Source: Gemmatimonadaceae bacterium
Lineage (GTDB): Bacteria > Gemmatimonadota > Gemmatimonadetes > Gemmatimonadales > Gemmatimonadaceae
Assembly (NCBI GenBank): GCA_036496605.1
Contig: DASXKV010000041.1
Span: 8,373-72,372, forward strand
DNA length: 64,000 bases
Reading direction: 5' to 3'
Shown: positions 1,845-63,329 of the stretch, one piece after another
Layout: each line of letters starts with the position of its first letter
Numbering within the stretch: the stretch's first letter is position 1
The notes under the pieces: generated by a model
Databases searched by the model: none
Seen by the model: the letters and a program-made list of their open reading frames with translations, nothing else
What the model was told of the DNA's origin: nothing
Translations under genes and position numbers: made by a program

Positions 1845-2211
1845 TGAGCACGCTGCACACGTGCTCATCGTCGAAGACAACGACCTCGTGAGTGGCGCGC
1901 TGCGCGTCCTGTTCGAACAGACGGGACGGCGCGTCTCGATTGCCGCGACCGTCGCCGACGCGGTGTCCATCGCGAGCGCGGATCAACCCGATCTGATGCT
2001 GATCGACCTCACGCTGCCGGATGGCAACGGGCTCGCCATCCTCGAGCAATTGCGAGGCATCAACCGTTCTCCCCGAGTCGCGGTCGCGCTCACCGGACAC
2101 GACGAGCCAGGGATCGCCGAGCGATGCGCGGAGCTGGGATGCGCCGACGTGCTCCTGAAGCCGGTGCCGACTCGCGAGCTCCTGAAGCGAGCGGAGGCGT
2201 GGCTCGCCTAA
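1768..2211 (+). CDS. Single-domain response regulator (CheY-like receiver)
   Basis: VLIVEDND..., phospho-acceptor context DLMLIDLTLPDG, conserved K in LLKP. True start is probably the in-frame GTG near 1861, because the ORF-track start overlaps the kinase by 77 nt. The stop TAA lies inside a GCCTAACG word. Confidence 0.8.
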   Translation: MVDRSGSRAPLGQGADSSSRSPIRGDEHAAHVLIVEDNDLVSGALRVLFEQTGRRVSIAATVADAVSIASADQPDLMLIDLTLPDGNGLAILEQLRGINRSPRVAVALTGHDEPGIAERCAELGCADVLLKPVPTRELLKRAEAWLA

Positions 2212-2215
2212 CGCG

Positions 2216-2280
2216 GCAGAGGATTGAGGGTCGAGGGTTGAGGACGGAGGGTAAAGAGCTGAGGGTAGAGGGGAGAGCGT
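2216..2280. repeat. G-rich tandem GAGGGT-type repeat (one arm only) between convergent genes
   Basis: ttGAGGGTcGAGGGTtgaggacgGAGGGTaaagagctGAGGGTaGAGGGGag; five GGG runs. Confidence 0.5.
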
Positions 2281-2288
2281 GCTCGCCG

Positions 2289-3014
2289 TCAGAGCCGGTT
2301 TCGCAGGGCGGCTGGCGTTAGGCTTTGCAAGTAGCTTGTGAGCACAGACATGTAGTTCGTCATCATCAGAATGCCGACGATGATCAGCAATGCGCCGGCA
2401 ATGCGATCCACCCAGACCAGCTTCGATCGGTACCGCTGAAAAACGGCGATGAAGCGCTCGACCGCCACCGCCGCGATGAGGAACGGGATCGCCAGACCCA
2501 GCGAGTACGCACCGAGCAGAAGAATGCCCCGCCGCAACTCGGCTTGCGTCGCGGTGTAGGTGAGGATGCCGCCGAGGATCGGACCGATGCAAGGACTCCA
2601 GCCGGCACCAAACGCAATGCCGACTAGCACCGAGCCGAGGTACCCGAGCGGCTTGTCGGCGATATGAATTCGGCGCTCTCGCGCAAGGAAGCGCATATTG
2701 AAGGCGCCGAGCAGATACAGGCCGAGCAGCACGACGAGGACACCGCCGATACGGCTGATCCAGCGGCGATTGAGCAACAAGAGACGGCCGACCGCGGTCG
2801 CGGTGGCTCCGAGCGCGAGGAAAATGAGAGAGAAACCGATGACGAACAACAGTGCGTGGACGAGCGCCGTCTTTCGCGAATGCTGAACATCCTCCAGACT
2901 CAGCCCGGTCACGAAGGTGACGTAGCTCGGAATAAGGGGCAACACGCAGGGTGACAGGAAGCTGAGCAGGCCGGCGGTGAACGCGATCAGCACACCTAAC
3001 GAAACGGATTCCAT
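2289..3014 (-). CDS. ccdA: Cytochrome c biogenesis / thiol-disulfide transporter, CcdA (DsbD-beta) family
   Basis: Polytopic membrane protein with the CcdA motifs LSPCVLPLIPSYV and GWSPCIGPILG. Start set at internal Met (MESVSLGV...); the ORF track extends to 3065. Confidence 0.8.
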   Translation of the reverse strand: MESVSLGVLIAFTAGLLSFLSPCVLPLIPSYVTFVTGLSLEDVQHSRKTALVHALLFVIGFSLIFLALGATATAVGRLLLLNRRWISRIGGVLVVLLGLYLLGAFNMRFLARERRIHIADKPLGYLGSVLVGIAFGAGWSPCIGPILGGILTYTATQAELRRGILLLGAYSLGLAIPFLIAAVAVERFIAVFQRYRSKLVWVDRIAGALLIIVGILMMTNYMSVLTSYLQSLTPAALRNRL

Positions 3015-4779
3015 TCCCCCTCTCGCGACGGATGGCGGCGCGGCAACGGCGGACGCGGGCAGCACGTCCAGGCGTCTTCGATTGCTCCGGTGGTATTACG
3101 GACTGAAATATCGCGTCTTTCGACGAGAGCGGCGACCGCGCGATGGACGGCGCGGGCTGATTGCGTTGCAGATCGACGCGCTTGCGTACGAAGAGCTGCG
3201 CCGCGCGATCGAGCTGGGATACTGTCCGGAGCTCACCACGATGGTTCGTGAGGAGGGCTATGTCCTGCGTCGCTGGTTCTGCGGCCTGCCATCAGCTACA
3301 CCCTACTGTCAGGCAGGCATCTTCTACGGAGCGAACGACGGCATTCCCGCCTTTCGATTTTACGACAAAGCATCACGCTTCGTCGTCACGTGCAACAGTC
3401 CGCGCGGCGTCCAATACATTCGCGATCGCATTCACACGCCGGGTGCGCTCGCCGGTGGTTCCAGCTATGTGAATCTGCTCGACGGCGATGCGCAGACAGT
3501 CGCTTTCACGGTCGCAACCCGCCGACGGATGTCGGTCTATCGCCGACTCGGCGGTACGCGCATGGCGCTGCTCATCGCGCTTCATCCGATTCGCTCGGCG
3601 ATCATCGTCGTGTACTCGGTGATCGAATGGCTGCGTGAAGAGTGGGAACGGACCGTCGGCGAGCTGTCGCGGCAACGGACGCATAGCGAGGGATTGTTTC
3701 CGTTCATTCGCATCCTGAGCAACGTCGTCGTACGGGAGCTGCAGACGATGGCGATCCTGCTCGACATCCATCTCGGTGTCCCGGTGATCTACAGCACGTA
3801 CATGCAGTACGACGAGCTCGGACATCATTTCGGACCGGCGAGCTGGCAGGCGCTTCGCGACCTTCGCCGCACCGACTCACGCATCCGAAGCATTCGACGC
3901 ATGATTCGCAGCGCCGCCGGACGTGAGTACGATCTGGTGATTCTCTCGGACCATGGGATGGCTCCCTCGGCGAGCTATCGTGTCCGATACGGTGAGTCGT
4001 TAGGTAGCACGGTCCAGCGGATTCTCGATGGCGACGCCGCGCGCCGTGGACGAATGAGCCTCAGCACGCACACGAGCGAAAATCCGATCAGCGAGTACGG
4101 CGACGTCGGCGCGAATCTGCTTGAGTCGATCGCGATGGAGACGCCGCCGCGGCGGCGTGCCGTGCGCCGCGTGCTTCGCCGGGTTGGCAATTGGATGCGT
4201 CGCCATTACGGCGTCCGGGAGCTCATTCTTCCGGAGAAGTACCGCGTCGACGATCGCCACGACGTCGTCGTGACGTACAGTTCGTCGCTCGCGCTCGTGT
4301 ATTTTGCGGACGTCGCGGAGCGTCTCTCGTACGACGCCATCGCCCGGGACCGCCGTCGCGCGCAGCTGTACGCCCAGCTGCTCGCCCATCCTGGGATTGG
4401 CCTCATCGGCACGCTGGACGACGACTCCGTTCGCGTGGAGAACGCGAAGGGACGCGCTTTGATCCGCGACGGCGCGCTCGTCGACGTGCGTGGTGCCAAC
4501 CCTCTCGAGCCGTACGGCACGGAGCCGCTTCTCGCGCGGGCCGTCGAGCGGCTCGTCAGGCAGGCGAACGCCGGCGATCTGGTGCTCTTCGGCGCATTCG
4601 ACGGCTATGAGATCGTCTGCTTCGACGACCAGATCGGGGCGCACGGCTCGGCCGGCGGAAGCCAGCTCCATCCGTTCCTGATCGCGCCGCGATCGTTAGG
4701 TCTGGAGAGCGCCGTGCTCGAGGACGCGCGCGATCTGCACGGGGCCCTCATGACCAAGTACGCGGTCGAGACTGCCTAA
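2977..4779 (+). CDS. Alkaline-phosphatase-superfamily protein (nucleotide pyrophosphatase/phosphodiesterase-like)
   Basis: GLPSATPYCQAGIFYG (nucleophile-Thr region) and ILSDHGM metal-binding motif. N-terminal start is uncertain: the ORF start would overlap the divergent ccdA 5' end. Confidence 0.65.
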   Translation: MNAISTPNETDSIPPLATDGGAATADAGSTSRRLRLLRWYYGLKYRVFRRERRPRDGRRGLIALQIDALAYEELRRAIELGYCPELTTMVREEGYVLRRWFCGLPSATPYCQAGIFYGANDGIPAFRFYDKASRFVVTCNSPRGVQYIRDRIHTPGALAGGSSYVNLLDGDAQTVAFTVATRRRMSVYRRLGGTRMALLIALHPIRSAIIVVYSVIEWLREEWERTVGELSRQRTHSEGLFPFIRILSNVVVRELQTMAILLDIHLGVPVIYSTYMQYDELGHHFGPASWQALRDLRRTDSRIRSIRRMIRSAAGREYDLVILSDHGMAPSASYRVRYGESLGSTVQRILDGDAARRGRMSLSTHTSENPISEYGDVGANLLESIAMETPPRRRAVRRVLRRVGNWMRRHYGVRELILPEKYRVDDRHDVVVTYSSSLALVYFADVAERLSYDAIARDRRRAQLYAQLLAHPGIGLIGTLDDDSVRVENAKGRALIRDGALVDVRGANPLEPYGTEPLLARAVERLVRQANAGDLVLFGAFDGYEIVCFDDQIGAHGSAGGSQLHPFLIAPRSLGLESAVLEDARDLHGALMTKYAVETA

Positions 4780-4781
4780 CG
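4774..4781. repeat. Representative copy of the over-represented 8-mer GCCTAACG (38 exact copies in the window)
   Basis: At this copy the top-strand TAA (4777-4779) ends the AlkP-like gene. The bottom-strand TAG (4778-4776) ends the convergent hypothetical gene. Confidence 0.9.
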
Positions 4782-5234
4782 CGTGGCGGCGAGCAGATAG
4801 TCGCGGGCGTCGTCGCCGGACATGCGCTCCGGCTCTTCGGCATCGCCCGCGCGTCGCTGAACGCCGCGGACGACGGTCTCCACGGTCACGAGCGGCGCGT
4901 CCGCTTCCGCGACGACGCGACACTCCCACTTGCCGCGGTCGGGTCCTTTGAGCGCGAGCTTGTACTTGGCCGTGTAGACGGTGTAGCGCGCCGGCTTGGC
5001 TCCCTCTGCCTCTGGCATCCCGAGCAGTGGCACCGATGAAGGTTCAGGTGGCGCGTCGGCCATGATAACAGGCTCGACGCGTTCGGGATGCGCGGCGATC
5101 ACGGCGACACCGCTCTCGACACCGCCCTGGCGAATTGGGGAGAAGAAATGCAGCTCGATGAATCGTTCGGCCGGAAGGTTCGCAGCGATGGCGACGAGAA
5201 AGCGCTCGCGCGTCGCTTCGAGAAATCGCGTCAC
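4776..5234 (-). CDS. Hypothetical protein (152 aa)
   Basis: The in-frame GTG at 5234 forms a GTGA overlap with the stop of the upstream TIGR00300 gene. High third-position GC. No family recognised. Confidence 0.5.
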   Translation of the reverse strand: MTRFLEATRERFLVAIAANLPAERFIELHFFSPIRQGGVESGVAVIAAHPERVEPVIMADAPPEPSSVPLLGMPEAEGAKPARYTVYTAKYKLALKGPDRGKWECRVVAEADAPLVTVETVVRGVQRRAGDAEEPERMSGDDARDYLLAATR

Positions 5235-6361
5235 GGCGTGCCCACCGCCGTCCGCGTGTCGCCCGCGCGGACGTTCGCGATGCCACGCGCCTCGAGCTCG
5301 CGCTCGACGTACAATCGCAAAATGTGCATGAAGTCCTGAGCGTTTGTCACGACGCCGAACGCCTGGTGGGTGCCACGATCCTTCAGCTTGGAGACAACGA
5401 ACTCGGACGAGTCGACGCAAATCGTGGGCAGCTCGCGCATCGCGCCGTTAGGCTCGGTGACGAACGCCGGCAGCATGTTGCCGGTCGCGATCGCATGCAG
5501 TGCCGTCGCGATCAGTATCGCCATCGTCGCCTTCGTCGTGTGGCGCTTCATCGCGTCCTGGCCAGCGATCGAATCGGTGATGACGTCCGGCAACGGACCG
5601 TCGTCCCGGATCGATCCCGTGAGAACGTATGGCACGTCGTGAACGACACACGAATACATGATGCCGTCCTTGATGATGCCCTGCTTCACGGCGTTTGCAA
5701 TGGAGCCCGCCGCGCGCACTTTGTTGATTGCCCGCATGTGCAGGCCATGGCCGCCCGTTGTCGCCTCACCAGTGTGCGTCATGCCGAGCGTCGTTCCGAA
5801 GATCGACGCCTCGATGTCGTGCACGGCGACGGCGTTCCCGGCGAGCAACGCGCCGACGAAGCCGTTCGCGATGAACCAGCTCATGTCGTTGCGCGCACGC
5901 GAATGCACGAGCGCGGGACCCGTTACCCAGATCGGATAGCCGTGGCGCTCGCGCTCGACGACGAGCAATTGTGCCATCAGCGCGTAATCGATCGGCTTCT
6001 CGCGCGAGACCTCGGAGGTCATGAACTTGAACTCGTCGGTGCCTTCGGCACCGACGAGTTCAGTTTGCACGTAGATTCCTTCCGATCCGTCCTCGGCCAT
6101 GCCGACCGCGACGAGCTCACCCTTACGAATGCGCCGCGCCTCCTTCACCCACAGCGTTCCGTCTCGATCGAGGACGAGTGACGCGTCCATGCGGGGCTCG
6201 CGCGGCGTGCGCCACTCACCTTTGACGCGAGCGTAGGTCGGGAGATTCGTTGTCGAGAAGAACCCCTCGGGGAGCACGCCGTCCGCGGTCGCGGCGACGA
6301 ACTTGGCGTCGGGAGCCGAGGCGAGCTCGGGGCGTTTGAAGTCCGGTTGGGAGAAAGGCAC
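5231..6361 (-). CDS. TIGR00300-family protein (LOR/SDH bifunctional-enzyme conserved domain; ornithine-cyclodeaminase-like arginine/ornithine metabolism)
   Basis: Good recalled similarity to the LOR/SDH conserved region (…GPALVHSRARNDMSWFIANGFVGALLAGNAVAVHDIE…HGLHMRAIN…). Start placed at GTG (VPFSQPDF) just downstream of the priA stop; the ORF-track start at 6568 overlaps priA. Confidence 0.6.
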   Translation of the reverse strand: MPFSQPDFKRPELASAPDAKFVAATADGVLPEGFFSTTNLPTYARVKGEWRTPREPRMDASLVLDRDGTLWVKEARRIRKGELVAVGMAEDGSEGIYVQTELVGAEGTDEFKFMTSEVSREKPIDYALMAQLLVVERERHGYPIWVTGPALVHSRARNDMSWFIANGFVGALLAGNAVAVHDIEASIFGTTLGMTHTGEATTGGHGLHMRAINKVRAAGSIANAVKQGIIKDGIMYSCVVHDVPYVLTGSIRDDGPLPDVITDSIAGQDAMKRHTTKATMAILIATALHAIATGNMLPAFVTEPNGAMRELPTICVDSSEFVVSKLKDRGTHQAFGVVTNAQDFMHILRLYVERELEARGIANVRAGDTRTAVGTP

Positions 6362-6399: not shown

Positions 6400-8646
6400 T
6401 CAGAGCAGCGCGACCGGGTCCCGATCTATCGTCACCCGGAGATCCCCGCCCTTGGGCACTGGAAAGCGTTCCGCGAAGTACCGGGATACCTTCGTGAGCT
6501 CGCCGGGATTGTTGGCCTTGAGCAGGAGATGCCACCGCCAACGCCGCTTGATGCGATCGACCGCGCACGGAGCGGGGCCGACGATCTGCATCTCGCCGCC
6601 GGATTGCCTAACGAGCCTCTGCAACCAGGCAGCGGCGTTGAGCGCCAGCTGCGCCGTCGCTCCCTCCGTCGTTCCGCTGAAGACGACGTTGGCGAGACGA
6701 ATGTATGGCGGATACACCGGACGCTCGCGTCCCCGCAACTCCTCGCGCACGAACGACGCGTAGTCATGAGCAACTGCGAATCGTACCGCGTGGTGCGCGG
6801 GCACGCGCGTCTGGATGATCACCTCTCCGCCCTTGGGCCCGCGCCCCGCGCGGCCCGCCACCTGACTCAAGAGCTGGAACGATCGCTCCGAGGCGCGGAA
6901 ATCCGGCAGATTGATGCCGACATCTGCGTCGACGACGCCGACCAGCGTCACATTCGGAAAGTCGAGTCCCTTCGCGATCATCTGCGTGCCGAGAAGCACA
7001 TCGACTTCGCGGCGCGCGACGCGATCGAGGATCTCCGCGTGTGCCCACTTGCCGCTGGTCGTGTCGACGTCCATGCGCGCGACACGCGCCGCGGGAAAGC
7101 GTTCGGCGATCAGCCGCTCGACCTGCTGGGTGCCGAGACCACGCTGCCGCAGCATGCTGCCGCCGCAGCGCGCGCACTTCGTTCGTGGCGGTTCGGCGTG
7201 TTGGCAGTAGTGACAGACGAGTCGTTCCGGCGTGCGATGGTACGTCAGGCTGATCGAGCAGTGGGGACAGGCGGCGACATCGCCGCAGTCGCCGCACTGG
7301 ATGAACGCCGCATACCCGCGGCGATTGAGCAGGAGAATGCTCTGTTCGTGACGCTGGAGGCGGGTCGAGAGCGCGAGCTCGAGCAGCTCGCCGATGACGC
7401 GCCGAAAAGGATCGTTAGGCCCGGCACGATCCGTGACGGTTTTCTGGGTTTCGCGGATGTCGACGACGTCGATCGTCGGCAGCCGACCGCCGCCGACACG
7501 ATCGGGAAGCGAGAGCAGCCTGTGCTTCCCCGCCGACGCGTTCACCCAGCTCTCGAGACTCGGTGTCGCGCTCCCAAGGACGACGACGGCGCCCTCGGTG
7601 CGGGCGCGCATGATCGCGACCTCGCGCGCGTGATAGCGCGGCGCCTCGCCCTGCTTGTAGCTCGACTCGTGCTCCTCGTCGACGATGATCGCGCCAAGGT
7701 TGGCGAGTGGCGCGAAGATCGCCGAGCGCGCGCCGACCGCGATTCGCTTCTCGCCGCGCCGCAGCGCAAGCCATGCGTCGTAGCGCTCGCCGTCGCTCAG
7801 CGCGCTGTGGAGGACGGCGACGCGATTGCCAAATGCCGCGCGAAAGCGATCTACGGTCTGGGGCGTGAGTGCGATCTCGGGCACGAGAACGATCGCGCTC
7901 TGGCCACGCTCGTCGACGATCGTGCGCAGCAGCTCGATGTACACGAGCGTCTTGCCGCTCCCGGTTATGCCGTGCAACAGGAACGTTTCGCCCTGACGGC
8001 CGGCACGTAAGGCCTGGATTGCTTGTTCCTGAGCAGGCGACGGCACGAGCGCGCGCGCTTCCGTGGGCCGGTCGGCAAACGGATCTCGCGCAACGACGTC
8101 CTCCTCGATTTCCACAACGCCGCGAGCAACGAGTCGCTTGAGCACGGATGGCGAGAAGGTCAGCCGCTCGACGAGATGCTCCACCGCAACGCGTCCGCCT
8201 AACGACTCGATGAGCTCGAACAGCGCGCGCTGCTGCGGCGCGCGCGCGAAGACGTTGTCTCGATGAAGCAGCGACGGCAGGTCACGGACGATCCGCGCCA
8301 TGCGGCGACGCTTCTGCGAGGGCACCGGGTCATCGGCGCCGCTCAGGGCAGCGGGCAGCGCACAGCGTAATGCGACGCCGAGGGGAACGACGTAGTACTG
8401 CGAGATCCACCGGCACAGCGCGAGCATCGACGCATCGAGCACCGGTGCATCGTCCGGGATCGCAGCGACAGGCTTCGGCGTTATACCGTCGCGCGCGCTG
8501 CCCTCGCCAACGACGATCCCGATCTCCTTCCGATTACGAAAAGGAACGAGCACGCGCGTGCCCGCGTCGAGCGGCGTACCTCGGCCCTCTACCGCGTACG
8601 TGAACGTCCGAAAGAGCGGAAGCGGCAGGGCGACGTCGACGAGCAT
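6400..8646 (-). CDS. priA: Primosomal protein N' (replication restart helicase PriA)
   Basis: Walker A GITGSGKT, DEEH box, Cys-rich zinc region CGDCGDVAACPHCSISLTYH...CHYCQH...CARCGG, 748 aa. Confidence 0.95.
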   Translation of the reverse strand: MLVDVALPLPLFRTFTYAVEGRGTPLDAGTRVLVPFRNRKEIGIVVGEGSARDGITPKPVAAIPDDAPVLDASMLALCRWISQYYVVPLGVALRCALPAALSGADDPVPSQKRRRMARIVRDLPSLLHRDNVFARAPQQRALFELIESLGGRVAVEHLVERLTFSPSVLKRLVARGVVEIEEDVVARDPFADRPTEARALVPSPAQEQAIQALRAGRQGETFLLHGITGSGKTLVYIELLRTIVDERGQSAIVLVPEIALTPQTVDRFRAAFGNRVAVLHSALSDGERYDAWLALRRGEKRIAVGARSAIFAPLANLGAIIVDEEHESSYKQGEAPRYHAREVAIMRARTEGAVVVLGSATPSLESWVNASAGKHRLLSLPDRVGGGRLPTIDVVDIRETQKTVTDRAGPNDPFRRVIGELLELALSTRLQRHEQSILLLNRRGYAAFIQCGDCGDVAACPHCSISLTYHRTPERLVCHYCQHAEPPRTKCARCGGSMLRQRGLGTQQVERLIAERFPAARVARMDVDTTSGKWAHAEILDRVARREVDVLLGTQMIAKGLDFPNVTLVGVVDADVGINLPDFRASERSFQLLSQVAGRAGRGPKGGEVIIQTRVPAHHAVRFAVAHDYASFVREELRGRERPVYPPYIRLANVVFSGTTEGATAQLALNAAAWLQRLVRQSGGEMQIVGPAPCAVDRIKRRWRWHLLLKANNPGELTKVSRYFAERFPVPKGGDLRVTIDRDPVALL

Positions 8647-8721: not shown

Positions 8722-9760
8722 ATGCCATGGCTCGACGCGTCACACCAAGCCCCGGCGCATCAGGCACGCGAATCTCGCCGCGCTCGATCGTCGCGCCCTC
8801 GTACGGATCGTCAGCGAGGAGTGCAGCGCCGTCGAAGTCCGCGTGATCGAGCAGCGACGCGAAGTGCGCTGCCGCCGAGATGCCAAGGCTCGACTCGATC
8901 ATGCAACCACACATCACGATCATGCCGTGCGCGCGCGCCGTCGCGATCATGCGCATCGCCTCACGAAGGCCGCCGCACTTCGAGAGCTTGATGTTGATCC
9001 CGTCGACGATGCCGGCGAGCTTCGCGACGTCGGTCGCGACGACGCACGACTCGTCGGCGATGACCGGGAGCGCGGAGCGCTCGCGCACGAAACGAAGCCC
9101 CTCAAGGTCGTGCGACGGAAGCGGCTGCTCGACGAATTCGACTCCCAGCTCGGCGAGGAGATCGATCATTCGAAGGGCGTACTTTGCCGTCCATGCCGCG
9201 TTCGCGTCGACTCGCAGAGTCTTCGTTGGCGCGGCACGACGAACGGCGCGAATGATCTCCTCGTCGCGATCGCTCCCGAGCTTGATCTTGAGCACGGGAT
9301 ATTGAATCGCTTCGTCGACGCGCGCCTCGAGCTCCTTCTCCGTCGCCGGAATTCCAATCGTGAAGCTCGATCGCGGCGCCTTCGATGGGTCGAGACCCCA
9401 GAGCTTGTACACCGGTATGTCGAGCTTCTTGCCGACGAGATCATGCGCGCCGGCGCTGATCGCCGACTTCATCGAACCGTTCAGTCGGATCGCCGCGTTC
9501 ATTTCAGTCTCGAGGGTCTCGAGAGCGAAGGGGTCTTCCGAGAGAACGCGCTCGGCAATCGGAGCGAGCCTCCCGTATGCGGCAATCGCGCTTTCGGTTG
9601 TTTCGCCGTAAAAGCGATTCGGTGCAGCCTCGCCCCACCCCTCGGCGCCGTCTCGATCGACGAGACGAACGCGAATCAGCTTCCACTCGCTCGAGCCGCC
9701 TCGTGCGATGACAAATGGATGCTTCGTGTGAACGGTGTGGGTGTCGTAGGAGAGCTTCAT
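8708..9760 (-). CDS. Dipeptide epimerase (L-Ala-D/L-Glu epimerase type), enolase superfamily
   Basis: MR/MLE-type motifs: KIKLG, RVDANAAW, VEQPL, ADES. The last codons and the stop lie in the right arm of the 8662-8721 hairpin. Confidence 0.8.
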   Translation of the reverse strand: MKLSYDTHTVHTKHPFVIARGGSSEWKLIRVRLVDRDGAEGWGEAAPNRFYGETTESAIAAYGRLAPIAERVLSEDPFALETLETEMNAAIRLNGSMKSAISAGAHDLVGKKLDIPVYKLWGLDPSKAPRSSFTIGIPATEKELEARVDEAIQYPVLKIKLGSDRDEEIIRAVRRAAPTKTLRVDANAAWTAKYALRMIDLLAELGVEFVEQPLPSHDLEGLRFVRERSALPVIADESCVVATDVAKLAGIVDGINIKLSKCGGLREAMRMIATARAHGMIVMCGCMIESSLGISAAAHFASLLDHADFDGAALLADDPYEGATIERGEIRVPDAPGLGVTRRAMASLSS

Positions 9761-9780
9761 TGGGCGAATTATAGAAGGTT

Positions 9781-9912
9781 GGGGGTAGAGGGTAGAGGGT
9801 AGAGGGTAGAGCGTAGGGCGTAGAGGGCGGAGGTTGAGCTATGCTCGACTCTCCGCCCTCCACAACCCACTGCCCTCTGCCCCAACCGTCTGCCCTCTGC
9901 GCTCTGCCCTAT
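9781..9912. repeat. Imperfect long hairpin with tandem 7-mer arms (GGTAGAG x~7 / CTCTGCC-type)
   Basis: Four perfect GGGTAGA units. The innermost 10 bp, GAGGGCGGAG/CTCCGCCCTC, are perfect. The right arm reaches the kinase stop codon. Confidence 0.7.
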
Positions 9913-10925: not shown

Positions 10926-11546
10926 TCAGCCCCCGAATTGCATGCGTACGAAATCGAACGGCGGCCACGGACCACTGAGGTCGAGAGCGAGGCGGGGGTT
11001 GCGGCGTCGCTGGTCGTCGACCGCGGCAATAAAATCATCCCAGAGCTCTCTGTCCACCAGGAACGCAGAGCTGAGAACGATGCCGGTGAGCTGCTCCGAT
11101 TTGAGTGGAACGGCAACAACCGCGTGACGCCGCAGCAAGCGCAGCGACTCCGCTGCCGCTGCAGCGACGTCCGATCCCGTCTCCCGCTCGGCAGCTTTGC
11201 CGTCGACGCGACCGACATGAACTCGCGCAACCGCTCGGTCCTCGACAAACGACAGCGCTTCGGTGAGCGTGATGTAGTGCAGTTCGAGCCATCGAGTGAG
11301 CGTCTCGCGGGACCGGAATACCGTTCCCACGGGCGCGGGCAGAACGGGCGCTTTTCCGAAGACGTCGTCCACCACGCGCCGATATTGATCGATCATCTCA
11401 CCGGTCGGTGGCGCCGAGGCATACTCCGCCGGACTGACGATGGCCGCGAGGTCGCGAAAGTGCAGCAGCTCGATATTCTCGGGCGGTTTCGCCTGCGCGT
11501 GATGCTCCACATCGGTAATGCCGAACAACCGAAGCGCGTTAGGCAT
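10926..11546 (-). CDS. GvpL/GvpF-family protein (gas-vesicle-protein-like, orphan)
   Basis: Matches the family pattern LFGIT...LAAIVS...VLPAPVGTVF...L..WL...L.EAL..V.DR...RVHV. No gvpA or other gvp genes in the window. Confidence 0.55.
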   Translation of the reverse strand: MPNALRLFGITDVEHHAQAKPPENIELLHFRDLAAIVSPAEYASAPPTGEMIDQYRRVVDDVFGKAPVLPAPVGTVFRSRETLTRWLELHYITLTEALSFVEDRAVARVHVGRVDGKAAERETGSDVAAAAAESLRLLRRHAVVAVPLKSEQLTGIVLSSAFLVDRELWDDFIAAVDDQRRRNPRLALDLSGPWPPFDFVRMQFGG

Positions 11547-12607: not shown

Positions 12608-12613
12608 GAGAAA

Positions 12614-51945: not shown

Positions 51946-52079
51946 CTGACGCGACTAAGAAATCCTGAGGGGGCTCCTCGGTACTCTCCGGCACTTCAGT
52001 ACTGCCGAGGAGCGGACACCCATCCGTGAACTGTTCATCTCTCAACGCTGTCTCACGTGCGTCGATCCCTCGCGAGCCA

Positions 52080-54572: not shown

Positions 54573-54599
54573 GCCAGCGCCTCGCGCCTGCGTACCTCG

Positions 54600-57053: not shown

Positions 57054-57126
57054 CGAACAGGCGGGTTCAGCAAGGCCGAAGTTGGAAACGCCCGCCCAAT
57101 CGTTATGTCATCGACCCACGGCCAAT

Positions 57127-57170
57127 CTTGCTTTGCTGAGCAAGGTACGATACCTTGGCCGCCAAGGTAC
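57127..57170 (+). promoter_or_regulatory. Cluster of inverted repeats upstream of padR (candidate PadR operator)
   Basis: CTTGCTttgctgAGCAAG overlapping AAGGTAcgaTACCTTGGccgCCAAGGTAC. AAGGTAC occurs twice, with its complement between the two copies. Confidence 0.4.
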
Positions 57171-57208
57171 ACCTCTCCTCGTTGCTACGCACCGGCACGC
57201 GCCAGATC

Positions 57209-57544
57209 ATGAATTACGACCGCGAGTTTCTCACCGGGACCGTCGGCGTCCTGATCCTCTCGCTCCTCAGTGAGCGCGCCATGTACGGCTACGAGATGCT
57301 GCAGGAAGCGGAGCGGCGCAGCGCGAGTCAGTTCCAGATGAAAGAAGGAACGCTCTACCCCGCGCTGCACCAGATGGAACGCGCCGGGTTTCTCAAGGCG
57401 ACGTGGCGCGAGAGCGACACCGGCCGCTCGCGAAAGTATTACGCGCTCACGGCAAAGGGCCGCCGCCACGCCGAGTCCAAGCGGCGTCAGTGGGAATCGA
57501 TATCCGCGGCGATGCGCGCCATCCTCGGAGCCCAACATGGATGA
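57209..57544 (+). CDS. PadR-family transcriptional regulator
   Basis: Winged-helix pattern ILSLLSERAMYGYEM…EGTLYPALHQMERAGFL…RKYYALT. Start at MNYDREF. Confidence 0.9.
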   Translation: MNYDREFLTGTVGVLILSLLSERAMYGYEMLQEAERRSASQFQMKEGTLYPALHQMERAGFLKATWRESDTGRSRKYYALTAKGRRHAESKRRQWESISAAMRAILGAQHG

Positions 57545-58169
57545 GCGAACACTCACCGAACTGATCGATCGCGTCGTGCGCGACGCGAAGCTTCCGGCCG
57601 CGCGCGCGCGTGACGAGTTGCGGCGCGAGCTGGAGAGTCACTTCGCGGACGCGGGCGGCTCGCCGGAGTCGCTGCGCGCCGCGATCGAACGCTTCGGCAG
57701 CCCCGAGCTCGTTGGCGGAGCGCTCGAGCGCGCGCATCGACATAATCGCGTGCTCTCCCATATCATCCGCATCCTGGCGGCGTCACTCGCGTCGGCGCTC
57801 CTCGCCCTCGTCATTCAGATCGTAGTGAATCTCCGCTTCGATGGCCCGGCGACCCTGGGACTCGCGCCGTCATTCGTGGCCTCCGCCGCGTTTTCGACCA
57901 TGCTCGTCGTTGCGCTCGTTGCCGCGTGGGAGCTCGACATCGACTCGTTATGCGCTCGCCTCGAGCGGCATCCGGTGCGTCTGCTCGGCACCGTCGCCGC
58001 GCTTGCCGCATCGATGGTGCTCTTTCATGCCACGCAGCACGGCTGGGTCCATCCGGCCAAGGCCCTGACCGAGAGCAGCATCGACGTCATCATCTGGACG
58101 TGCACGATCGCGATCCTCACGCGCGTCGATCGCGCTTTTGCGCGCGTCTTCACACCCGCCGAGCCATGA
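57537..58169 (+). CDS. Membrane protein, HAAS/DUF1700-like sensor partner of PadR
   Basis: N-terminal helical module (…LPAARARDELRRELESHF…FGSPELV…) followed by several TM helices. 8-nt overlap with padR and ATGA overlap with the permease. Confidence 0.55.
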   Translation: MDERTLTELIDRVVRDAKLPAARARDELRRELESHFADAGGSPESLRAAIERFGSPELVGGALERAHRHNRVLSHIIRILAASLASALLALVIQIVVNLRFDGPATLGLAPSFVASAAFSTMLVVALVAAWELDIDSLCARLERHPVRLLGTVAALAASMVLFHATQHGWVHPAKALTESSIDVIIWTCTIAILTRVDRAFARVFTPAEP

Positions 58170-60577
58170 TCAACTCCCTCGCCAGCGACCTGCGCCAAGC
58201 CTGGCGCATGATGAAGCGCAGCCCGATCGTTGCCGCCGTGGTGATCGGATCGTTAGGCATCGGCATCGGTGTCAACACGGCCGTGTTCTCGTGGGTTCAG
58301 GCGGTGATCCTGCACCCGCTGCCGGGCGTCGCCGAAGCCGCAAGCTTCCATCTCGTCGAAGCGCGAACGGAGAGCGCTGCGCATCCGGGCTCGTCGTGGC
58401 TCGAGTATGTCGATCTGCGTACCCGCCTTCCGTCCATGCCGAACGTGCTCGCCTTTCGGATGGCGCCATTCACGGTGGGCGCCGCGGATCATGTCGAGCG
58501 AACGTATGGCCTGCTCGTATCCGGGAATTATTTCTCGGCGCTCGGTTTGCGGCCCGCAGCGGGACGATTTCCGCGGCCCGAGGAAGTGGCGCGTGCTGGC
58601 GCCGAGCCGGTGGTCGTGATCTCCCACGAATTCTGGGAGACGCGCTTCAATCGATCACCCGATGCGATCGGGCAGACACTGCGGGTGAATGAGCGTCCAC
58701 TCACGATCATCGGCGTCGCACCGGAAGGTTTTCAGGGAACCATCCTCGCGCTCGACTTCGACCTCTGGATTCCAGCGACGATGGCTTCGACGCTGTTCGC
58801 CGGCAACCGCGAGCTCGAGGACCGAAGCGTGCGCGGTTACAATATCATGGCCCGCCTTGGCCCCGGCGTTACGCTCGCGCGCGCTCAGGGCGAGGTGGAC
58901 GCCGCGATGCGCGATCTTGCGCTACGGTATCCGCAAACGAACGCCAAGGTCGGCGCCGAAGTGCTTCCCTTCTGGCGTGCACCGCGCGGGCCACAGCTCA
59001 TGCTCGCGCGGGCCATACTCGTCTTACAGGGCGTGATGCTGCTAGTACTTCTGGCCGTCTGCGGCAATACGGCCAATCTCATCCTCGCCCGCGCCAGCGC
59101 GCGCCAGCGGGAGATCGGCGTGCGGCTCGCGTTAGGGGCTGGCCCATGGCGCATCACGGCGTCGCTCCTCACCGAAAGCTTGACGCTCGCGCTCTTCGGT
59201 GCCGTTGTCGGCACCGCGCTCGCAGTCTGGGGAACGCAGGCGCTCCGCGCCGTGCCGATGATCGGCGCCTTTCCGATCAAGTTTCAAACGAGCGTCGATG
59301 GCGTCACGCTCGCCTTTGCGATCGGCCTCGGCATCGCTTGCGGCTTCATCTTCGGCCTCGTTCCCGCGCTGCAGCTTTCTCGCGTCGACCCGCAGAGCGC
59401 GATGCGCGCCGGGATTCACTCCGCCGGTCGCAGCCGCACCCGCAACGCACTCATGTCGACGCAGGTTGCGCTCGCGCTCATCGTGCTTACCGCAGGCGCG
59501 CTCTTCTTCCGCAGCTTCCGCGAGAGCGAGACCGACACCGGCTTTCGCCGCAACGGCGTGCTCCTCGCTGCGTATGACCTTTCCGCGCGCAATCCAACCG
59601 GCCAGCAGAGTCTCGCCTTCGCGTCGACGGTCGTGGAGCGGCTGTGGGCGCTGCCTAACGTCGATGGTGCCGCCGTCGCCTCTTCTGTTCCACTCGACAT
59701 TCACGGCTTGCCCATTCGCTCGTTCACGCTCGAGGGACGAGCTCGTGCCGACGCGGCCGCCGATCAGGTGCTGAACAACGTCGTCACGCCGGGCTATTTC
59801 AAGACACTGGGCATCCCATTCCGCGAAGGCCACGATTTCGCGGCGCTCACCGATGCGTCGTCACCGGCCCAGGTCATCGTCAACGAAGCATTCGTCCGGC
59901 GTTACGTCGCTGGCACGCAGGCGCTCGGACGGCGCCTGGAGTCGCGAGGAAAGACCTATGTCATCGTCGGAGTCGTGCGCACGACGATCAGCGACTCGTT
60001 CGGCGAGCGTCCGACGCCATGCATCTACTTCTCCTACCGGGACCGGCCGGCATCGACGGGGGAGATCCATGTGCACACCGCAGGCGGTGCGGAGCAGCTC
60101 GCACCCGAGATTCGTCGCGTCGTGCGCGAGCTCGATCCGGGGCTGGTTGTCTATGACATTCGCACGCTCGACGAACACATCGAGAAGAATCTCTTTCTCC
60201 GTCGCATACCGGCGCGAATGTTCGTCGTCCTCGGCCCGCTGCTGTTGTTGCTGGCAGCGATCGGGATCTACGCTGTCGTCTCCTACTCGATCTCACGACG
60301 CACGGTGGAGATCGGCGTCCGACACGCGCTCGGCGCGTCCGCCCATCGCATCGTCATCGAGATCACACGCGACACGTTGCGCGCGATCGGATCGGGCGCG
60401 CTGATTGGATGGATCATCGCGCTGCTGGTCGAAATTCACGCGGCGCGCGGCGTGATCTACTTACCGATCGTGCTCGGCGTGCCGGCGATTCTCTTCGCGG
60501 TCGCCGTCCTCGCGTGCTGGATTCCAGCACGTCGCGCGGCTGGCGCCGATCCGGTGCGTGCGCTCCGGAATGACTGA
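58166..60577 (+). CDS. ADOP-family duplicated permease
   Basis: DLRQAWRMMKRSPIVAAVV… and two FtsX-type modules. Start at the ATG of the ATGA overlap. Confidence 0.85.
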   Translation: MINSLASDLRQAWRMMKRSPIVAAVVIGSLGIGIGVNTAVFSWVQAVILHPLPGVAEAASFHLVEARTESAAHPGSSWLEYVDLRTRLPSMPNVLAFRMAPFTVGAADHVERTYGLLVSGNYFSALGLRPAAGRFPRPEEVARAGAEPVVVISHEFWETRFNRSPDAIGQTLRVNERPLTIIGVAPEGFQGTILALDFDLWIPATMASTLFAGNRELEDRSVRGYNIMARLGPGVTLARAQGEVDAAMRDLALRYPQTNAKVGAEVLPFWRAPRGPQLMLARAILVLQGVMLLVLLAVCGNTANLILARASARQREIGVRLALGAGPWRITASLLTESLTLALFGAVVGTALAVWGTQALRAVPMIGAFPIKFQTSVDGVTLAFAIGLGIACGFIFGLVPALQLSRVDPQSAMRAGIHSAGRSRTRNALMSTQVALALIVLTAGALFFRSFRESETDTGFRRNGVLLAAYDLSARNPTGQQSLAFASTVVERLWALPNVDGAAVASSVPLDIHGLPIRSFTLEGRARADAAADQVLNNVVTPGYFKTLGIPFREGHDFAALTDASSPAQVIVNEAFVRRYVAGTQALGRRLESRGKTYVIVGVVRTTISDSFGERPTPCIYFSYRDRPASTGEIHVHTAGGAEQLAPEIRRVVRELDPGLVVYDIRTLDEHIEKNLFLRRIPARMFVVLGPLLLLLAAIGIYAVVSYSISRRTVEIGVRHALGASAHRIVIEITRDTLRAIGSGALIGWIIALLVEIHAARGVIYLPIVLGVPAILFAVAVLACWIPARRAAGADPVRALRND

Positions 60578-60583
60578 CGCGTT

Positions 60584-60657
60584 GTCATCCTGAGCGAAGC
60601 GAAGGATCTAGTGTCCTTAGTTAGGAGCAGGCTTCTAACTACACAGAGTAGATCCTT
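60584..60657. terminator. GTCATCCTGAGCGAAGCGAAGGATC motif plus nested hairpin between convergent permease genes (candidate bidirectional terminator)
   Basis: AAGGATCTAgtgtccTTAGTTAGgagcaggcttCTAACTAcacagagTAGATCCTT. Confidence 0.5.
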
Positions 60658-60668
60658 GACAAGACGAC

Positions 60669-63329
60669 CTATTCGGCGCGCAACGTAATTGCGGGATCCA
60701 CGCGCGCAGCTCTCCACGCTGGTAGCCAACACGCGATCATCGCGACGCCGGCGAGCAACGCGACGACGCCGATGTACGTGATCGGATCGAGCCGCGACAC
60801 ACCGAAAAGCAGCGTCATGATCCCGCGCGTCGCCGCCATTGCGCCGACGAGCCCGATCAGCACGCCGAGCAGCGTCAAGCTCATCCCCTGCCTCACGATG
60901 AGCCCGAGAATGTTGCCGCGCGTCGCGCCCAACGCGGATCGCACGCCGATCTCGCGCGTCCGCTCGGTAACGCGGCCGGCGAGCACACCGTAGATTCCGA
61001 GTGCCGCCAACAGCAGTGCCGCGAAAGCAAACGTCTCGATGATGACGAGCGCAAAACGCCGCTGCGAAGCCGTCTTGGCGATGAGTGCATCCATCGTCAC
61101 GATCCGCTCGATGGGTTGATTCGCATCGACGGACCATACCGCGCGCTTCACACTCGGCGCCATCGCCGCCGGATCGCCGCTCGTGCGCACGACGAGTGAC
61201 TGTACGTTATCGACCCACCACCACCTTCCCATCGGAACATAGAATGCGGCGGTCTGGCCGAAGGCGAGTGACTCCTGCTTCACGTCGCCAACGACGCCGA
61301 CGACAACATCCCACGGACGATCGCTTGCCGTCTCCGGACCAAAGCGGACCCGCTGTCCGATCGGATTCTGATCGCCGAATTTGCGCCGCGCGAGCGATTC
61401 GCTGATGAGGATGGCTTCTGGCCCGCCACGCACGTCGCTCTCGTCGAACAGTCGACCGCGTCGCAGTGGAATCCCCATCGTGGCGAAGTACCCCGGCGTC
61501 ACGACGTAGCGAAGCGCGCTCCCGTCTTCGCCGGGCTTCACGCTCGGCGTCGATTGAAATTCGTAACCATACCCATCGAGATCGTCGCTGAGCGGGAGCT
61601 GGCTCGTCACCGCGGCAGAGATGACGCCCGGAACGTGACTCACGCTCTCGAGCGCTTGCTCGTAGTAGCGCGCGCGGGCGGTGTCCGAGTGATAGGCATG
61701 TCCCGGTTCGATCACCTGCATCGTCAGGAGGTGCGGAGCGTTGAATCCCGGAGCGACCGCGAACAAGCGCTGCAGGCTCCGCATCAACAATCCCGCGCCG
61801 ACGAGAAGCACGAGCGCGAGCGCGACTTCAGTCACGACGAGCGCGCTGCGTGCGATGCCGCGTCCGCCCGCGGTCCGACGTGAGCTCTGCTGCAAATCGT
61901 CGTGCAGCCCCGCGCGCGTGGCGCCCAGCGCGGGTACGAGTCCCATCGTTAGGCCGATCAGCGTCGTTACGACGAGCGCGAATGCGAATACCGGCCCGTT
62001 CAGACCCATGGCGTCCACGCGCGGCAGACCAGCCGGGCTCAGCGCAATCAGCGCGCGAACGCCAATCGCGGCGACCTCGAGCCCCAGCAAGCCGCCGACG
62101 AGTGCCAGAACGACCGTCTCGGTCAGTACCTGTTGCACGAGGCGCCCGCGACCGGCGCCGAGAGCGATGCGCATCGCGAACTCGCCGCGCCGCTGCGCAC
62201 CACGCGCAACCAGCAGATTCGTCACGTTGACGCAAACGATCGCGAGCAGCACGAGGACCGCGCCACAGATCGCGAAAAGCATTGGCTTCGCGTCGGTGGC
62301 AATGGCGTCCTGCAACGGCTGCACGAGCATCCCGTCACTCATGTTCGCCCACATCGGCCGGGGGAACTCGGGCAACGGCGCGCGGGCAATCATCCGGATC
62401 TCGCCGCTCGCGCGCGCGGCGCTCGATGCACGCTGAAGGCGGCCGACGATCCGGTAGTGATGGCCCCACTCACGTGAATTGAATTCTGCCGTGGCCTGCT
62501 CCTGGAGCGGCGCCCAGATATCGGCCGACGGCGCAATCACATTCGAGAAGCGCGGCGGCATCACCCCAATGACGAGATACTCATCGTCGTCGAGCATGAT
62601 GCGCCGGCCAACGAGCGAGCGATCGCCTCCAAATCGGCGTTGCAGCAGCCGGTCGCTCAGGATGACGACCCGTGGGCCACCGACGCGATCGTCGTCACTG
62701 TCGAAGTCGCGTCCGACGGCCGGCGTCACGCCGAGCGTGCGAAAGTAGCTCTCGCTCACGCGCTGTCCTTGCAGACGCTCCGGCTCACTCGTGGCCGTGA
62801 GCGACGACTGCCAGCGATCGACCGCGGCCAGTGACTGGAACGACCGGCTTCGCACGCGAAGCTCGCCGTAGGTACCGAAGGTGGCGTCGCGCGGCCCGCC
62901 GTCCGCACCGCGATCCGCGACGAGTACGAGGCGCTCGGCGTTTGGATACGGAAGCGATGCGAGAAGGATGGGATTCACGGCGCTGAAGATGGCGGTCGTC
63001 GCGCCAATGCCTAACGCGAGCGTCAACACGCTCACCACCGTGAAGCCGGGATTGGCGCGAAGCCGGCGGAGCGCGAAGCGCAGATCCGCGAGAAGCATCC
63101 AGACGGCGTTCTCCCAACCGTAGGAGCGCACATGCTCACGAACAGCAGTCATGTTGCCGACCTCCAGCTGCGCGGCGCGGCGCGCCGCTGCGGGCTCGAG
63201 CCCGCGTGCGACGTAGTCCGCCGTCGTTAGGTCCACATAGTGTTGCACTTCGTCGGCGAGCTCCTGGTCTGCCTCGGTGCGACGCGTGAGCACCCGGAGA
63301 CCTCGCCTGAGCTGCCGCCAGAGGGACAT
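60669..63329 (-). CDS. ADOP-family duplicated permease with N-terminal 'permease prefix' helical domain
   Basis: MSLWRQLRRGLRVLTRRTEADQELADEVQHY… then DLRFALRRLRANPGFT and two FtsX modules. Start is 5 nt after the padR stop. Confidence 0.85.
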   Translation of the reverse strand: MSLWRQLRRGLRVLTRRTEADQELADEVQHYVDLTTADYVARGLEPAAARRAAQLEVGNMTAVREHVRSYGWENAVWMLLADLRFALRRLRANPGFTVVSVLTLALGIGATTAIFSAVNPILLASLPYPNAERLVLVADRGADGGPRDATFGTYGELRVRSRSFQSLAAVDRWQSSLTATSEPERLQGQRVSESYFRTLGVTPAVGRDFDSDDDRVGGPRVVILSDRLLQRRFGGDRSLVGRRIMLDDDEYLVIGVMPPRFSNVIAPSADIWAPLQEQATAEFNSREWGHHYRIVGRLQRASSAARASGEIRMIARAPLPEFPRPMWANMSDGMLVQPLQDAIATDAKPMLFAICGAVLVLLAIVCVNVTNLLVARGAQRRGEFAMRIALGAGRGRLVQQVLTETVVLALVGGLLGLEVAAIGVRALIALSPAGLPRVDAMGLNGPVFAFALVVTTLIGLTMGLVPALGATRAGLHDDLQQSSRRTAGGRGIARSALVVTEVALALVLLVGAGLLMRSLQRLFAVAPGFNAPHLLTMQVIEPGHAYHSDTARARYYEQALESVSHVPGVISAAVTSQLPLSDDLDGYGYEFQSTPSVKPGEDGSALRYVVTPGYFATMGIPLRRGRLFDESDVRGGPEAILISESLARRKFGDQNPIGQRVRFGPETASDRPWDVVVGVVGDVKQESLAFGQTAAFYVPMGRWWWVDNVQSLVVRTSGDPAAMAPSVKRAVWSVDANQPIERIVTMDALIAKTASQRRFALVIIETFAFAALLLAALGIYGVLAGRVTERTREIGVRSALGATRGNILGLIVRQGMSLTLLGVLIGLVGAMAATRGIMTLLFGVSRLDPITYIGVVALLAGVAMIACWLPAWRAARVDPAITLRAE

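Follow-up and report, generated by a model that had tools for sequence, protein, structure and literature searches.

Why should a single eight-base word, GCCTAACG (CGTTAGGC on the opposite strand), recur 38 times within 64,000 nucleotides of a Gemmatimonadaceae genome? The question is raised by positions 8,373 to 72,372 of contig DASXKV010000041.1 (assembly GCA_036496605.1), a 64-kb stretch that was analysed as a whole and is hereafter called the window. A preliminary description, made from the letters alone, had counted 38 copies by eye and had likened them to DNA uptake signals or to a genome-wide protein-binding word. An exact search returned the same number, 18 on the forward and 20 on the reverse strand, and the same positions for all but two copies, each of which had been placed one base off (24295 should read 24294, and 54306 should read 54307). 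The hexamer CCTAAC occurs 56 times in the window, in agreement with the 18 further cores that had been reported beside the full word. Moreover, the word is not confined to the window: on a 110 kb metagenome contig that continues it, the 9 kb that follow hold 8 more copies.

The excess is large under every null model that we applied. Dinucleotide-preserving shuffles of the window predicted 0.96 copies (maximum 3), and Markov models of order 0, 1, 2 and 3 predicted 2.5, 1.1, 0.9 and 1.7 copies, respectively. Inside coding sequence, where 34 of the copies lie, shuffling synonymous codons within each gene gave an expectation of 1.7 (at most 6 in 300 shuffles), under a null that still retains the rare codons contributed by the word itself; when amino acids were preserved and codons were redrawn from the usage of the window minus the word's own codons, the expectation was 0.83. 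The enrichment of about 15-fold first proposed is right on a zero-order estimate and conservative otherwise, since the better nulls place the excess at 20-40-fold. Indeed, GCCTAACG has the highest z-score of all 8-mers in the window.

The 38 sites are listed below with their strand, the gene concerned, whether the word lies in the sense or antisense direction of that gene, and the codons or residues affected; relatives are given by locus label.

2206-2213, + strand: stop codon (GCC-TAA) of the response-regulator gene at 1861-2211
2316-2323, - strand: DsbD-like gene, sense, AGC-CTA-ACG (S-L-T)
4774-4781, + strand: TAA stop of the + strand phosphodiesterase gene and TAG stop of a called - strand open reading frame (ORF) at 4776-5234
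5446-5453, - strand: ArgZ-like gene, sense, G-CCT-AAC-G (E-P-N-G)
6606-6613, + strand: priA, antisense, C-GTT-AGG-C (L-V-R-Q)
7413-7420, - strand: priA, sense, G-P-N-D; copy missing in the 96% identical relative L086
8197-8204, + strand: priA, antisense, TCG-TTA-GGC (S-L-G)
11537-11544, - strand: start of the GvpL/GvpF gene, ATG-CCT-AAC-G (M-P-N-A)
11840-11847, + strand: histone-deacetylase-family gene, antisense, P-L-G
12648-12655, + strand: intergenic, adjoining a heptamer array; no significant hairpin
16166-16173, + strand: sigma-54 activator gene, antisense, N-V-R-Q
17794-17801, - strand: M3-like peptidase gene, sense, R-L-T
18162-18169, - strand: M3-like peptidase gene, sense, V-P-N-E
19053-19060, + strand: intergenic, flanked by hisS and the M3-like gene; hairpin not significant
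22101-22108, + strand: purA, antisense, ACG-TTA-GGC (T-L-G)
24294-24301, + strand: M28 peptidase gene, antisense, A-L-G
24524-24531, - strand: M28 peptidase gene, sense, A-P-N-D
24750-24757, - strand: dapA, sense, R-L-T
25437-25444, - strand: start of dapA, ATG-AGC-CTA-ACG (M-S-L-T)
26852-26859, - strand: MgtC gene, sense, G-L-T
31020-31027, + strand: FTCD gene, sense, M-P-N-E; amino acids changed from the orthologue consensus L-P-K-E
37629-37636, + strand: rplO (L15), antisense, L-V-R-R
39782-39789, - strand: rplF (L6), sense, G-L-T; retained in L289 (84% nucleotide identity)
41265-41272, - strand: rplE (L5), sense, G-L-T; retained in L289 and L290
42154-42161, - strand: rplN (L14), sense, L-P-N-G; occupied in L006, L009 and L019 and not in four 87-90% identical relatives
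45422-45429, + strand: rplB (L2), antisense, CCG-TTA-GGC (P-L-G); occupied in five motif-rich lineages, CTC or CTG in all motif-free ones
46103-46110, + strand: rplW (L23), antisense, I-V-R-P
50958-50965, + strand: fusA (EF-G), antisense, T-L-G
52535-52542, + strand: first MacB/FtsX permease gene, sense, P-P-N-G
53107-53114, - strand: first MacB/FtsX permease gene, antisense, A-L-G
54307-54314, - strand: first MacB/FtsX permease gene, antisense, A-L-G
54615-54622, - strand: Big_2/M8 peptidase gene, sense, R-L-T
55646-55653, - strand: Big_2/M8 peptidase gene, sense, M-P-N-A
55959-55966, - strand: Big_2/M8 peptidase gene, sense, G-L-T
58251-58258, - strand: second MacB/FtsX permease gene, antisense, S-L-G
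59653-59660, + strand: second MacB/FtsX permease gene, sense, L-P-N-V
61947-61954, - strand: third MacB/FtsX permease gene, sense, G-L-T
63009-63016, + strand: third MacB/FtsX permease gene, antisense, A-L-G

With gene calls taken from identical metagenome contigs and Pfam, 34 of the 38 copies are thus internal to genes, which is what a coding fraction of 93% predicts, while two supply stop codons (2206 and 4774) and two lie between genes (12648 and 19053). Inside genes the word takes all four stop-free frames: xGC-CTA-ACG, xxG-CCT-AAC-G and xCG-TTA-GGC by ten copies each and xxC-GTT-AGG-C by four. The word thereby accounts for 10 of the 35 TTA and 10 of the 37 CTA codons of the window (27-29%), 10 of the 71 CCT and 4 of the 36 AGG. 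The frame contexts previously read from the letters were correct at the GvpL/GvpF start (M-P-N), L14 (LPNG), FTCD (MPNE), PriA (GPND, LVRQ and SLG) and the DapA start (M-S-L-T), as were both stop codons, including the shared one at 4774, and the copies in conserved rplO, rplF, rplE, rplN, rplB, rplW and fusA. An S-L-G context assigned to the M3 peptidase was mistaken, since the two copies in the M3-like gene encode R-L-T and V-P-N-E and the second S-L-G belongs to the MacB-like permease at 58251.

How widely is the word shared? The closest genomes to the window among 185,579 species representatives are Gemmatimonadaceae metagenome-assembled genomes (MAGs) whose SecY is at most 78% identical, and SecY and other proteins of the window are found base for base on metagenome contigs of the Joint Genome Institute (JGI), whose samples 3300036781-3300036832 contain this population together with relatives of 84-97% identity. 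When the word was counted in 80 retrieved SecY loci, a few proved rich in it:

L006, 21 copies in 21 kb
L019, 24 copies in 21 kb
L039, 15 copies in 21 kb
L009, 11 copies in 21 kb
L051, 9 copies in 10 kb
L038, 7 copies in 21 kb

The density in motif-rich genomes, all of those found being MAGs, is about 0.33-1.1 copies per kb. The remaining loci hold 0 or 1 copy, apart from faint counts in L012 (the sister of L006), L032 and L045, which carry 2-3 copies in 13-17 kb where about 0.3 would be expected. Both mapped L012 copies lie at sites common with L006, and these three may be lineages in which the word decays after loss of its driver. Pooled, seven motif-rich genomes hold 125 copies in 181 kb, as compared to 6 in 906 kb for related genomes. 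On a tree of 19 concatenated ribosomal-operon proteins (3248 residues), the motif-rich genomes fall into at least four groups, namely L006, L009 and L019 with the weak L012; the window; L038; and L039, which L051 joins on the SecY tree. Each group is placed beside motif-free sisters, and deeper Gemmatimonadales clades are without the word. Among megabase contigs, CAWJMB010000002.1 (3.5 Mb) is motif-rich, and CAVXGK010000002.1 and CAVSUI010000003.1 are motif-free. A metagenome scan with PurA found, among the matches listed, a closest relative of 80% identity and none with the word; exact-protein look-ups with EF-Tu and S19 returned the same population only, and two look-ups near the end of the window gave no match. 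The word is likewise not present in the SecY loci labelled Gemmatimonas aurantiaca, G. phototrophica and Roseisolibacter, which is probably why it has so far gone unnoticed. In the full-text literature the 8-mer appears only in primers and unrelated constructs and is never treated as a genomic motif. The earlier statement that no such motif had been described therefore holds for a genome-wide word, but seven of its eight bases match the core box of integron attC and attI sites, as taken up below.

Comparison of orthologous codons places the cause at the level of DNA. At amino-acid-invariant sites (L2 P-L-G, L14 L-P-N-G and SecY A-L-G) the motif-free genomes use CTC or CTG and CCG or CCC, and the motif-rich genomes use TTA and CCT, a change from CTC to TTA taking two substitutions. 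Peptide contexts able to encode the word synonymously were counted in the ribosomal, SecY, Adk, Map, FTCD and TrpS genes; they are occupied in 48 of 186 cases in rich genomes (26%; 14-50% by frame) versus 1 of 1170 (0.09%) in poor ones. About half of the copies involve no amino-acid change relative to the poor-genome consensus; the remainder sit at variable protein positions where residues have shifted, for example K to N in L6, and the context x-P-N-[VADEG] is twice as frequent in motif-rich genomes. Selection or drive at the DNA level, as originally proposed, is thus borne out by codon-aware nulls, orthologous codon swaps, occupancy and the orientation neutrality described below, and it is strongly supported that the excess lies at this level, with codon and amino-acid costs.

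These copies are not a frozen inheritance. Separate clades share 13 sites where independent filling of permissive sites predicts 9.4, and members of the same clade share 10 where 5.5 are expected. Between-clade sharing is therefore no more than independence predicts, and ancestral retention is rejected as its explanation. It is also rejected at L14, where the site is common to four deep lineages yet missing in four near relatives, which read GCCGAATG or GCCTAATG. Contigs 84-90% identical to the window have kept two ribosomal sites and gained one new site. The comparison shows that copies arose by independent accumulation at equivalent sites, and because sharing is near-independent and gains and losses occur among relatives of 84-90% nucleotide identity, the word is read as being maintained by a continuing process with turnover rather than as a fixed set of sites.

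What is it that is being maintained? Nothing is conserved beyond the eight bases among the 38 aligned copies, and the 125 pooled copies show no more than a slight tendency towards a pyrimidine at -1 and towards A or C followed by G at +1 and +2. In the absence of a strong flanking consensus, a longer repeat and a mobile or dispersed element resembling repetitive extragenic palindromes or miniature inverted-repeat transposable elements are ruled out. The gaps between copies fit an exponential distribution (coefficient of variation 0.87; Kolmogorov-Smirnov p = 0.62), so that spacing is random and a regular arrangement is not supported. One-mismatch variants are in excess at position 1 (25 versus 1.6 expected, mostly A), at position 8 (37 versus 2.2) and, for C to A, at position 3 (14 versus 1.0), with no excess at positions 2, 6 and 7; the transition product ACCTAACG is seen more often than any other variant (15 versus 0.4). 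A strict CCTAAC core with softer outer G's, and such a graded pattern of variants, are typical of a protein-DNA interface, and our reading is that a sequence-specific DNA-binding protein recognises the word.

The word is non-palindromic, GCCTAACG differing from its own reverse complement. As the preliminary description had noted, there is no bias by strand (18:20) or by transcription (20 sense and 14 antisense copies in genes). Relative to the direction of the ribosomal operon the orientation across seven genomes is 65:60, which rejects a 75:25 skew (binomial p = 3e-8) and indicates that there is no replichore polarity of the Chi or FtsK orienting polar sequence (KOPS) type, on the assumption that ribosomal operons are co-directional with replication. 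Because orientation is neutral to strand, transcription and operon direction, RNA-level functions and polar functions of the Chi, KOPS and primase type are excluded.

Phages also carry the word. We searched IMG/VR for pairs of copies lying within 30 bases; the matches were mostly chance or tandem arrays and also included true phage contigs with dispersed copies and matching G+C. Four such contigs hold the word in mixed orientation at 29-60 times expectation (Poisson p 7e-5 to 4e-16, with the two ascertained copies discounted):

IMGVR_UViG_3300020577_002214 (reassembled; loci L294, L318, L319 and L320), 16 copies in 41.7 kb, observed/expected 32, with terminase, portal, DNA polymerase, clamp, primase, helicases, endolysin and QueC/QueE/FolE/DpdA-like genes
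L350 (from the same JGI sample series as the window), 11 copies in 12.1 kb, observed/expected 36, with terminase, portal, protease, head and tail-fibre genes
L420, 9 copies in 11.7 kb, observed/expected 60, with head genes
L120, 6 copies in 13.5 kb, observed/expected 29, with tape-measure and tail genes

Because copies lie inside terminase, polymerase and tape-measure genes, they arose within the phage lineages; for example, the L350 terminase gene holds four, and related phages carry 0-2 copies in all. When ORFs were called roughly, copies outside them made up about half of the total in the 41.7 kb phage and two thirds in L420, compared to 4 of 11 in L350 and 1 of 6 in L120. Inverted pairs form strong intergenic hairpins in these phages:

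L294, 16656-16718: hairpin of -43.9 kcal/mol, z -3.5
L420, 7370/7383: hairpin, z -4.2
L420, around 8970-9000: hairpin, z -6.8

Neither the window nor the phage loci matched any Rfam family. Beside its DNA polymerase gene the 41.7 kb phage has genes resembling QueC, QueE, GTP cyclohydrolase and DpdA (queuine tRNA-ribosyltransferase family), which suggests that its DNA carries a 7-deazaguanine modification. A trio of copies, two of them perfect and one matching at 7/8 bases, lies in non-coding DNA of the same phage at 17860-17962 of L294, just upstream of an unannotated ORF that precedes the large terminase gene (terL). The trio runs direct, direct, inverted, and a second trio at 16656-16718 runs likewise; the ORF has no family match and no recognisable small-terminase signature.

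Which process could write such a word into chromosomes and phages alike? We tentatively favour, at somewhat less than even confidence, a DNA-level drive like that of the DNA uptake sequences (DUS) of Neisseriaceae and the uptake signal sequences (USS) of Pasteurellaceae. Fragments carrying the word would be preferentially transferred into conspecific cells, by uptake or by another sequence-biased transfer step, and would replace homologous DNA through recombination. Mutations that create the word would then be over-transmitted, and copies would pile up where the coding sequence can bear them, up to the point at which mutation, codon cost and drive came into balance at about 0.4-1.1 copies per kb. 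The specificity determinant would be present in some Gemmatimonadaceae lineages and not in their sisters, through loss or horizontal transfer. Both transfer as the biased step and recombination as the spreader are what we infer by analogy. This drive is ranked first because sequence-biased uptake with recombination is, to our knowledge, the only process shown experimentally to yield such dense asymmetric words in both orientations, and because the word shares features with uptake sequences. DUS and USS densities are of the same order as that of the word, and USS shift proteomes in a similar manner. Temperate Pasteurellaceae phages, which co-evolve with their hosts, accumulate USS (PMC6776037), and inverted DNA uptake enhancing sequences (DUES) form hairpins as the inverted phage pairs do here (10.1101/2025.10.24.684340).

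Several observations weigh against an uptake- or transfer-biased drive. Neither the window nor the 9 kb beside it encodes competence machinery such as a type IV pilus, ComEA, ComEC or DprA, or a word-specific receptor of the kind that ComP is in Neisseriaceae; no driver gene was found in the window, PriA being the sole DNA-transaction protein there, and the literature searched reports no competence, transformation or uptake sequences for Gemmatimonadota. Transcription terminators hold about half of all DUES and the majority of their inverted pairs (10.1101/2025.10.24.684340), whereas the host copies are intragenic in 34 of 38 cases and not terminator-associated, and none of the four non-internal copies in the window lies in a significant hairpin when its fold is compared to shuffles. 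Likely lytic Pasteurellaceae phages are USS-poor (PMC6776037), whereas the 41.7 kb carrier, in which no integrase or repressor was detected and which has its own replication module, is probably virulent. Finally, the word is all-or-none among related lineages and identical throughout, which therefore points to repeated loss or horizontal movement of the determinant, and the motif-poor relatives have no alternative hyper-abundant word that would speak for dialects. The candidate dialect words GAGCAGAT, CTGCTCGA and AAGGGCAA were rejected as ordinary sense-strand coding words, and other candidates were tandem heptamers. Of the original suggestion of an uptake signal or a genome-wide binding word, then, the density, the non-palindromic form, the core, the effects on proteins and the phages are in favour, and the terminators, the patchiness and the phage with no sign of lysogeny are not.

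The phage result gives weight to alternatives that act within the cell. An unlikely but credible one is an intracellular "self" word, at which a nuclease, helicase, recombination-repair or defence machine would be attenuated or redirected in either orientation, in a manner otherwise like that of Chi with RecBCD or AddAB; selection would then favour many copies in host chromosomes and in phages alike. This would explain why the word is enriched in phage structural genes and in a phage that is probably virulent and brings its own replication machinery; a non-palindromic 8-mer resembles Chi of E. coli, and repeated gain and loss of a defence or repair module would fit the patchiness. However, every Chi known to us is polar and skewed, whereas the 65:60 split shows no such bias. 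In addition, the excess of Chi is few-fold, and weak per-site selection is unlikely to suffice for a 20-100-fold excess, 26% occupancy and rare codons in ribosomal genes.

We regard as more doubtful a target of modification or repair resembling highly iterated palindrome 1 (HIP1) of cyanobacteria, in which, for example, an orphan or type IIG/III-like methyltransferase coupled to very-short-patch-type correction would convert near-cognates to the word in any DNA replicating in the cell. HIP1 too is a mainly intragenic, hyper-abundant octamer found in some lineages only, and an intracellular bias of this kind would also act on lytic phages. On the other hand, the word is non-palindromic and all eight of its positions are enforced, the passage from CTC to TTA taking two changes, whereas very-short-patch-type repair corrects one mismatch type at one position and leaves modest excesses. 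The transition variant ACCTAACG is the commonest, so that position is evidently not corrected, and since the case has now been argued for HIP1 as an uptake sequence in its turn, this explanation partly merges with uptake-biased drive.

It is improbable, in our judgement, that a mobile determinant other than a pilus receptor, perhaps an integron-type recombinase or a packaging and transfer protein of a phage or gene-transfer agent (GTA), repeatedly imprints an 8-bp core on whole chromosomes and on phages of unrelated Gemmatimonadaceae lineages. If true, this would be an unrecognised genome-wide molecular drive linked to site-specific recombination or transduction, and would place ready-made recombination boxes beside any gene, with a bearing on the origin of integron cassettes.

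Taken by itself, the recombinase version, in which the word is the core site of an integron-type (IntI) or related tyrosine recombinase and its spread is linked to the mobile enzyme through target creation or cassette genesis, for example, earns little credence from us. It arises from a sequence match: the attC inverse core is RYYYAAC and the core GTTRRRY (PMC3053210, PMC12901181), and GCCTAAC and GTTAGGC, covering 7/8 bases of the word, fit them as perfect attC or attI boxes (R'' and R'). Integrons have been reported in Gemmatimonadota (PMC8618304), integron mobility would fit the patchy phylogeny, the preferred variant at position 1 is the other purine, and inverted-pair scans retrieve repeats resembling cassette arrays. 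Those repeats, TGCCTAACGCAACGGT... and ...CTTGTTAGGCT, recur every 0.3-1.7 kb on L361 (2300-8000), L412 (6195-8300), L443, L433 (12300-13400) and L388, contigs classed as viral with G+C of 39-64% (42% in L361); they form attC-like arrays in one orientation (R'' GCCTAAC ... R' GTTAGGC) and look like integron cassette arrays. The window is different. True attC sites are imperfect palindromes of 57-141 bp that follow cassette ORFs in one orientation near intI, whereas the window has single boxes, isolated and facing either way, within essential and other housekeeping genes, where recombination sites should be harmful. Only the boxes at 2206 and 2316 are paired within attC range. No palindrome lies between them, and the stretch from just before the first box to a little short of the second (2195-2290) shows a fold no stronger than that of shuffled sequence (z = +1.3). 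An intI gene was not seen, the window encodes no integrase, and its copies of the word are not attC sites. The position 3 variants, C to A rather than C to T, depart from the consensus Y, and we know of no integrase activity that creates its own core sites. A random 8-mer would match with a chance of about 0.4%, but many known motifs could be matched after the fact, and the agreement, compared post hoc, is best kept as an unexplained coincidence and a low-probability lead.

Very improbable is a packaging word, whereby a phage or GTA terminase would read a pac-like site and preferentially transduce host DNA that bears it, so that the word would be over-transmitted as under uptake bias, but by way of capsids. 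Several phages do have many copies, four of them within the L350 terminase gene, and the trio at 17860-17962 of L294 lies upstream of the ORF preceding terL. Yet that ORF is without a small-terminase signature, the cluster was noticed post hoc and one cluster was the ascertainment criterion itself, the pac sites known to us are longer and composite, and we know of no precedent for genome-wide over-representation of pac. An artefact of amino-acid or codon usage, of a dispersed repeat family or of assembly contamination can be dismissed, given the two coding-aware nulls (0.8-1.7 copies), the unconserved flanks, the same amino-acid contexts in orthologues of relatives without the word, and its recurrence both in separate assemblies made by different projects and in identical contigs recovered in several samples.

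The window has other features in its own right. Intergenic tandem arrays with a 7-base (in some cases 14-base) period, built of TAGAGGG, AGGGGCT/CCCTAGC, AGGCGCT, TGGTGGT/ACCAACA or ACCAATC, often occur as two inverted arrays flanking a short spacer and resemble the short tandemly repeated repetitive (STRR) heptamers of cyanobacteria. They lie at:

9772-9914, heptamer array
12613-12636, heptamer array
20456-20499, heptamer array
21596-21714, heptamer array
27517-27623, heptamer array
29765-29843, heptamer array
31382-31558, heptamer array
36004-36067, heptamer array
37475-37504, heptamer array
41497-41522, heptamer array
44971-45002, heptamer array
47657-47741, heptamer array
48068-48141, heptamer array
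49378-49452, heptamer array

The second most over-represented word family in the window is CCCTAGCCCC. An ORF of 106 residues without a family match (38701-39021), just upstream of and overlapping rpsE, consists largely of degenerate GC-rich repeats with periods of 9-21 bases (38817-39013), and may either extend the N-terminus of S5 with low-complexity sequence or be an independent small gene. The fusA gene is present without a preceding rpsL-rpsG, and the ORFs at 51566-52385 match no family. Finally, 51566-64000 holds three MacB/FtsX-type permease genes, two of them paired with PadR-family regulators, one pair being separated by a HAAS-domain gene.

We know of two bacterial families only in which a hyper-abundant word has been demonstrated to be taken up preferentially, with HIP1 as a third and debated case. 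The present word would thus be a new case in an unrelated, largely uncultured soil phylum, and its interleaved lineages with and without the word amount to a natural experiment that has no counterpart in the classical systems and makes the cause testable by comparative genomics. In particular, phylogenetic profiling of Gemmatimonadota MAGs could identify the reader protein and so distinguish uptake bias, nuclease evasion and repair bias. The word also marks phage host range in metagenomes, and it could raise transformation efficiency if these bacteria were cultured. More generally, a DNA-level drive appears able to override the codon usage of ribosomal proteins and to fill a quarter of permissive sites.

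How, then, does the word compare to systems already known? Chi and KOPS or architecture imparting sequences (AIMS) are likewise over-represented, species-specific, non-palindromic words of 5-8 bases that are read by a DNA-processing machine, but they are strongly co-oriented with replication and enriched few-fold, whereas the word stands at 65:60 and 20-100-fold. HIP1 (GCGATCGC), which most lineages have, shares with it the octamer length, the hyper-abundance, the mainly intragenic location and the absence from some lineages; HIP1, however, is a palindrome with cognate methyltransferases and a reported quasi-periodic spacing, whereas the word is asymmetric and randomly spaced, and we know of no methyltransferase for it. 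The cause of HIP1 was long unexplained and is now argued to be its use as an uptake watermark (10.64898/2026.06.24.733823). The closest likeness is to DUS, with its GCCGTCTGAA core, and to USS (AAGTGCGGT), which are similarly short and non-palindromic and occur at about 0.4-1 per kb equally in both orientations. Like the word, they have a sharp core with softer edges, occupy the tolerated frames, shift amino acids at variable positions, accumulate in the phages of their hosts and form hairpins as inverted pairs, as the word does in phages. The word differs from them in its phylum and its unrelated sequence, in host copies that are nearly all intragenic and outside terminators, and in one carrier phage that looks virulent; moreover, DUS and USS are family-wide and form dialects, whereas the word is all-or-none among sisters and has none. 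We class it with the hyper-abundant genomic words of the DUS/USS/HIP1 type, among which its all-or-none phylogenetic pattern is unusual.

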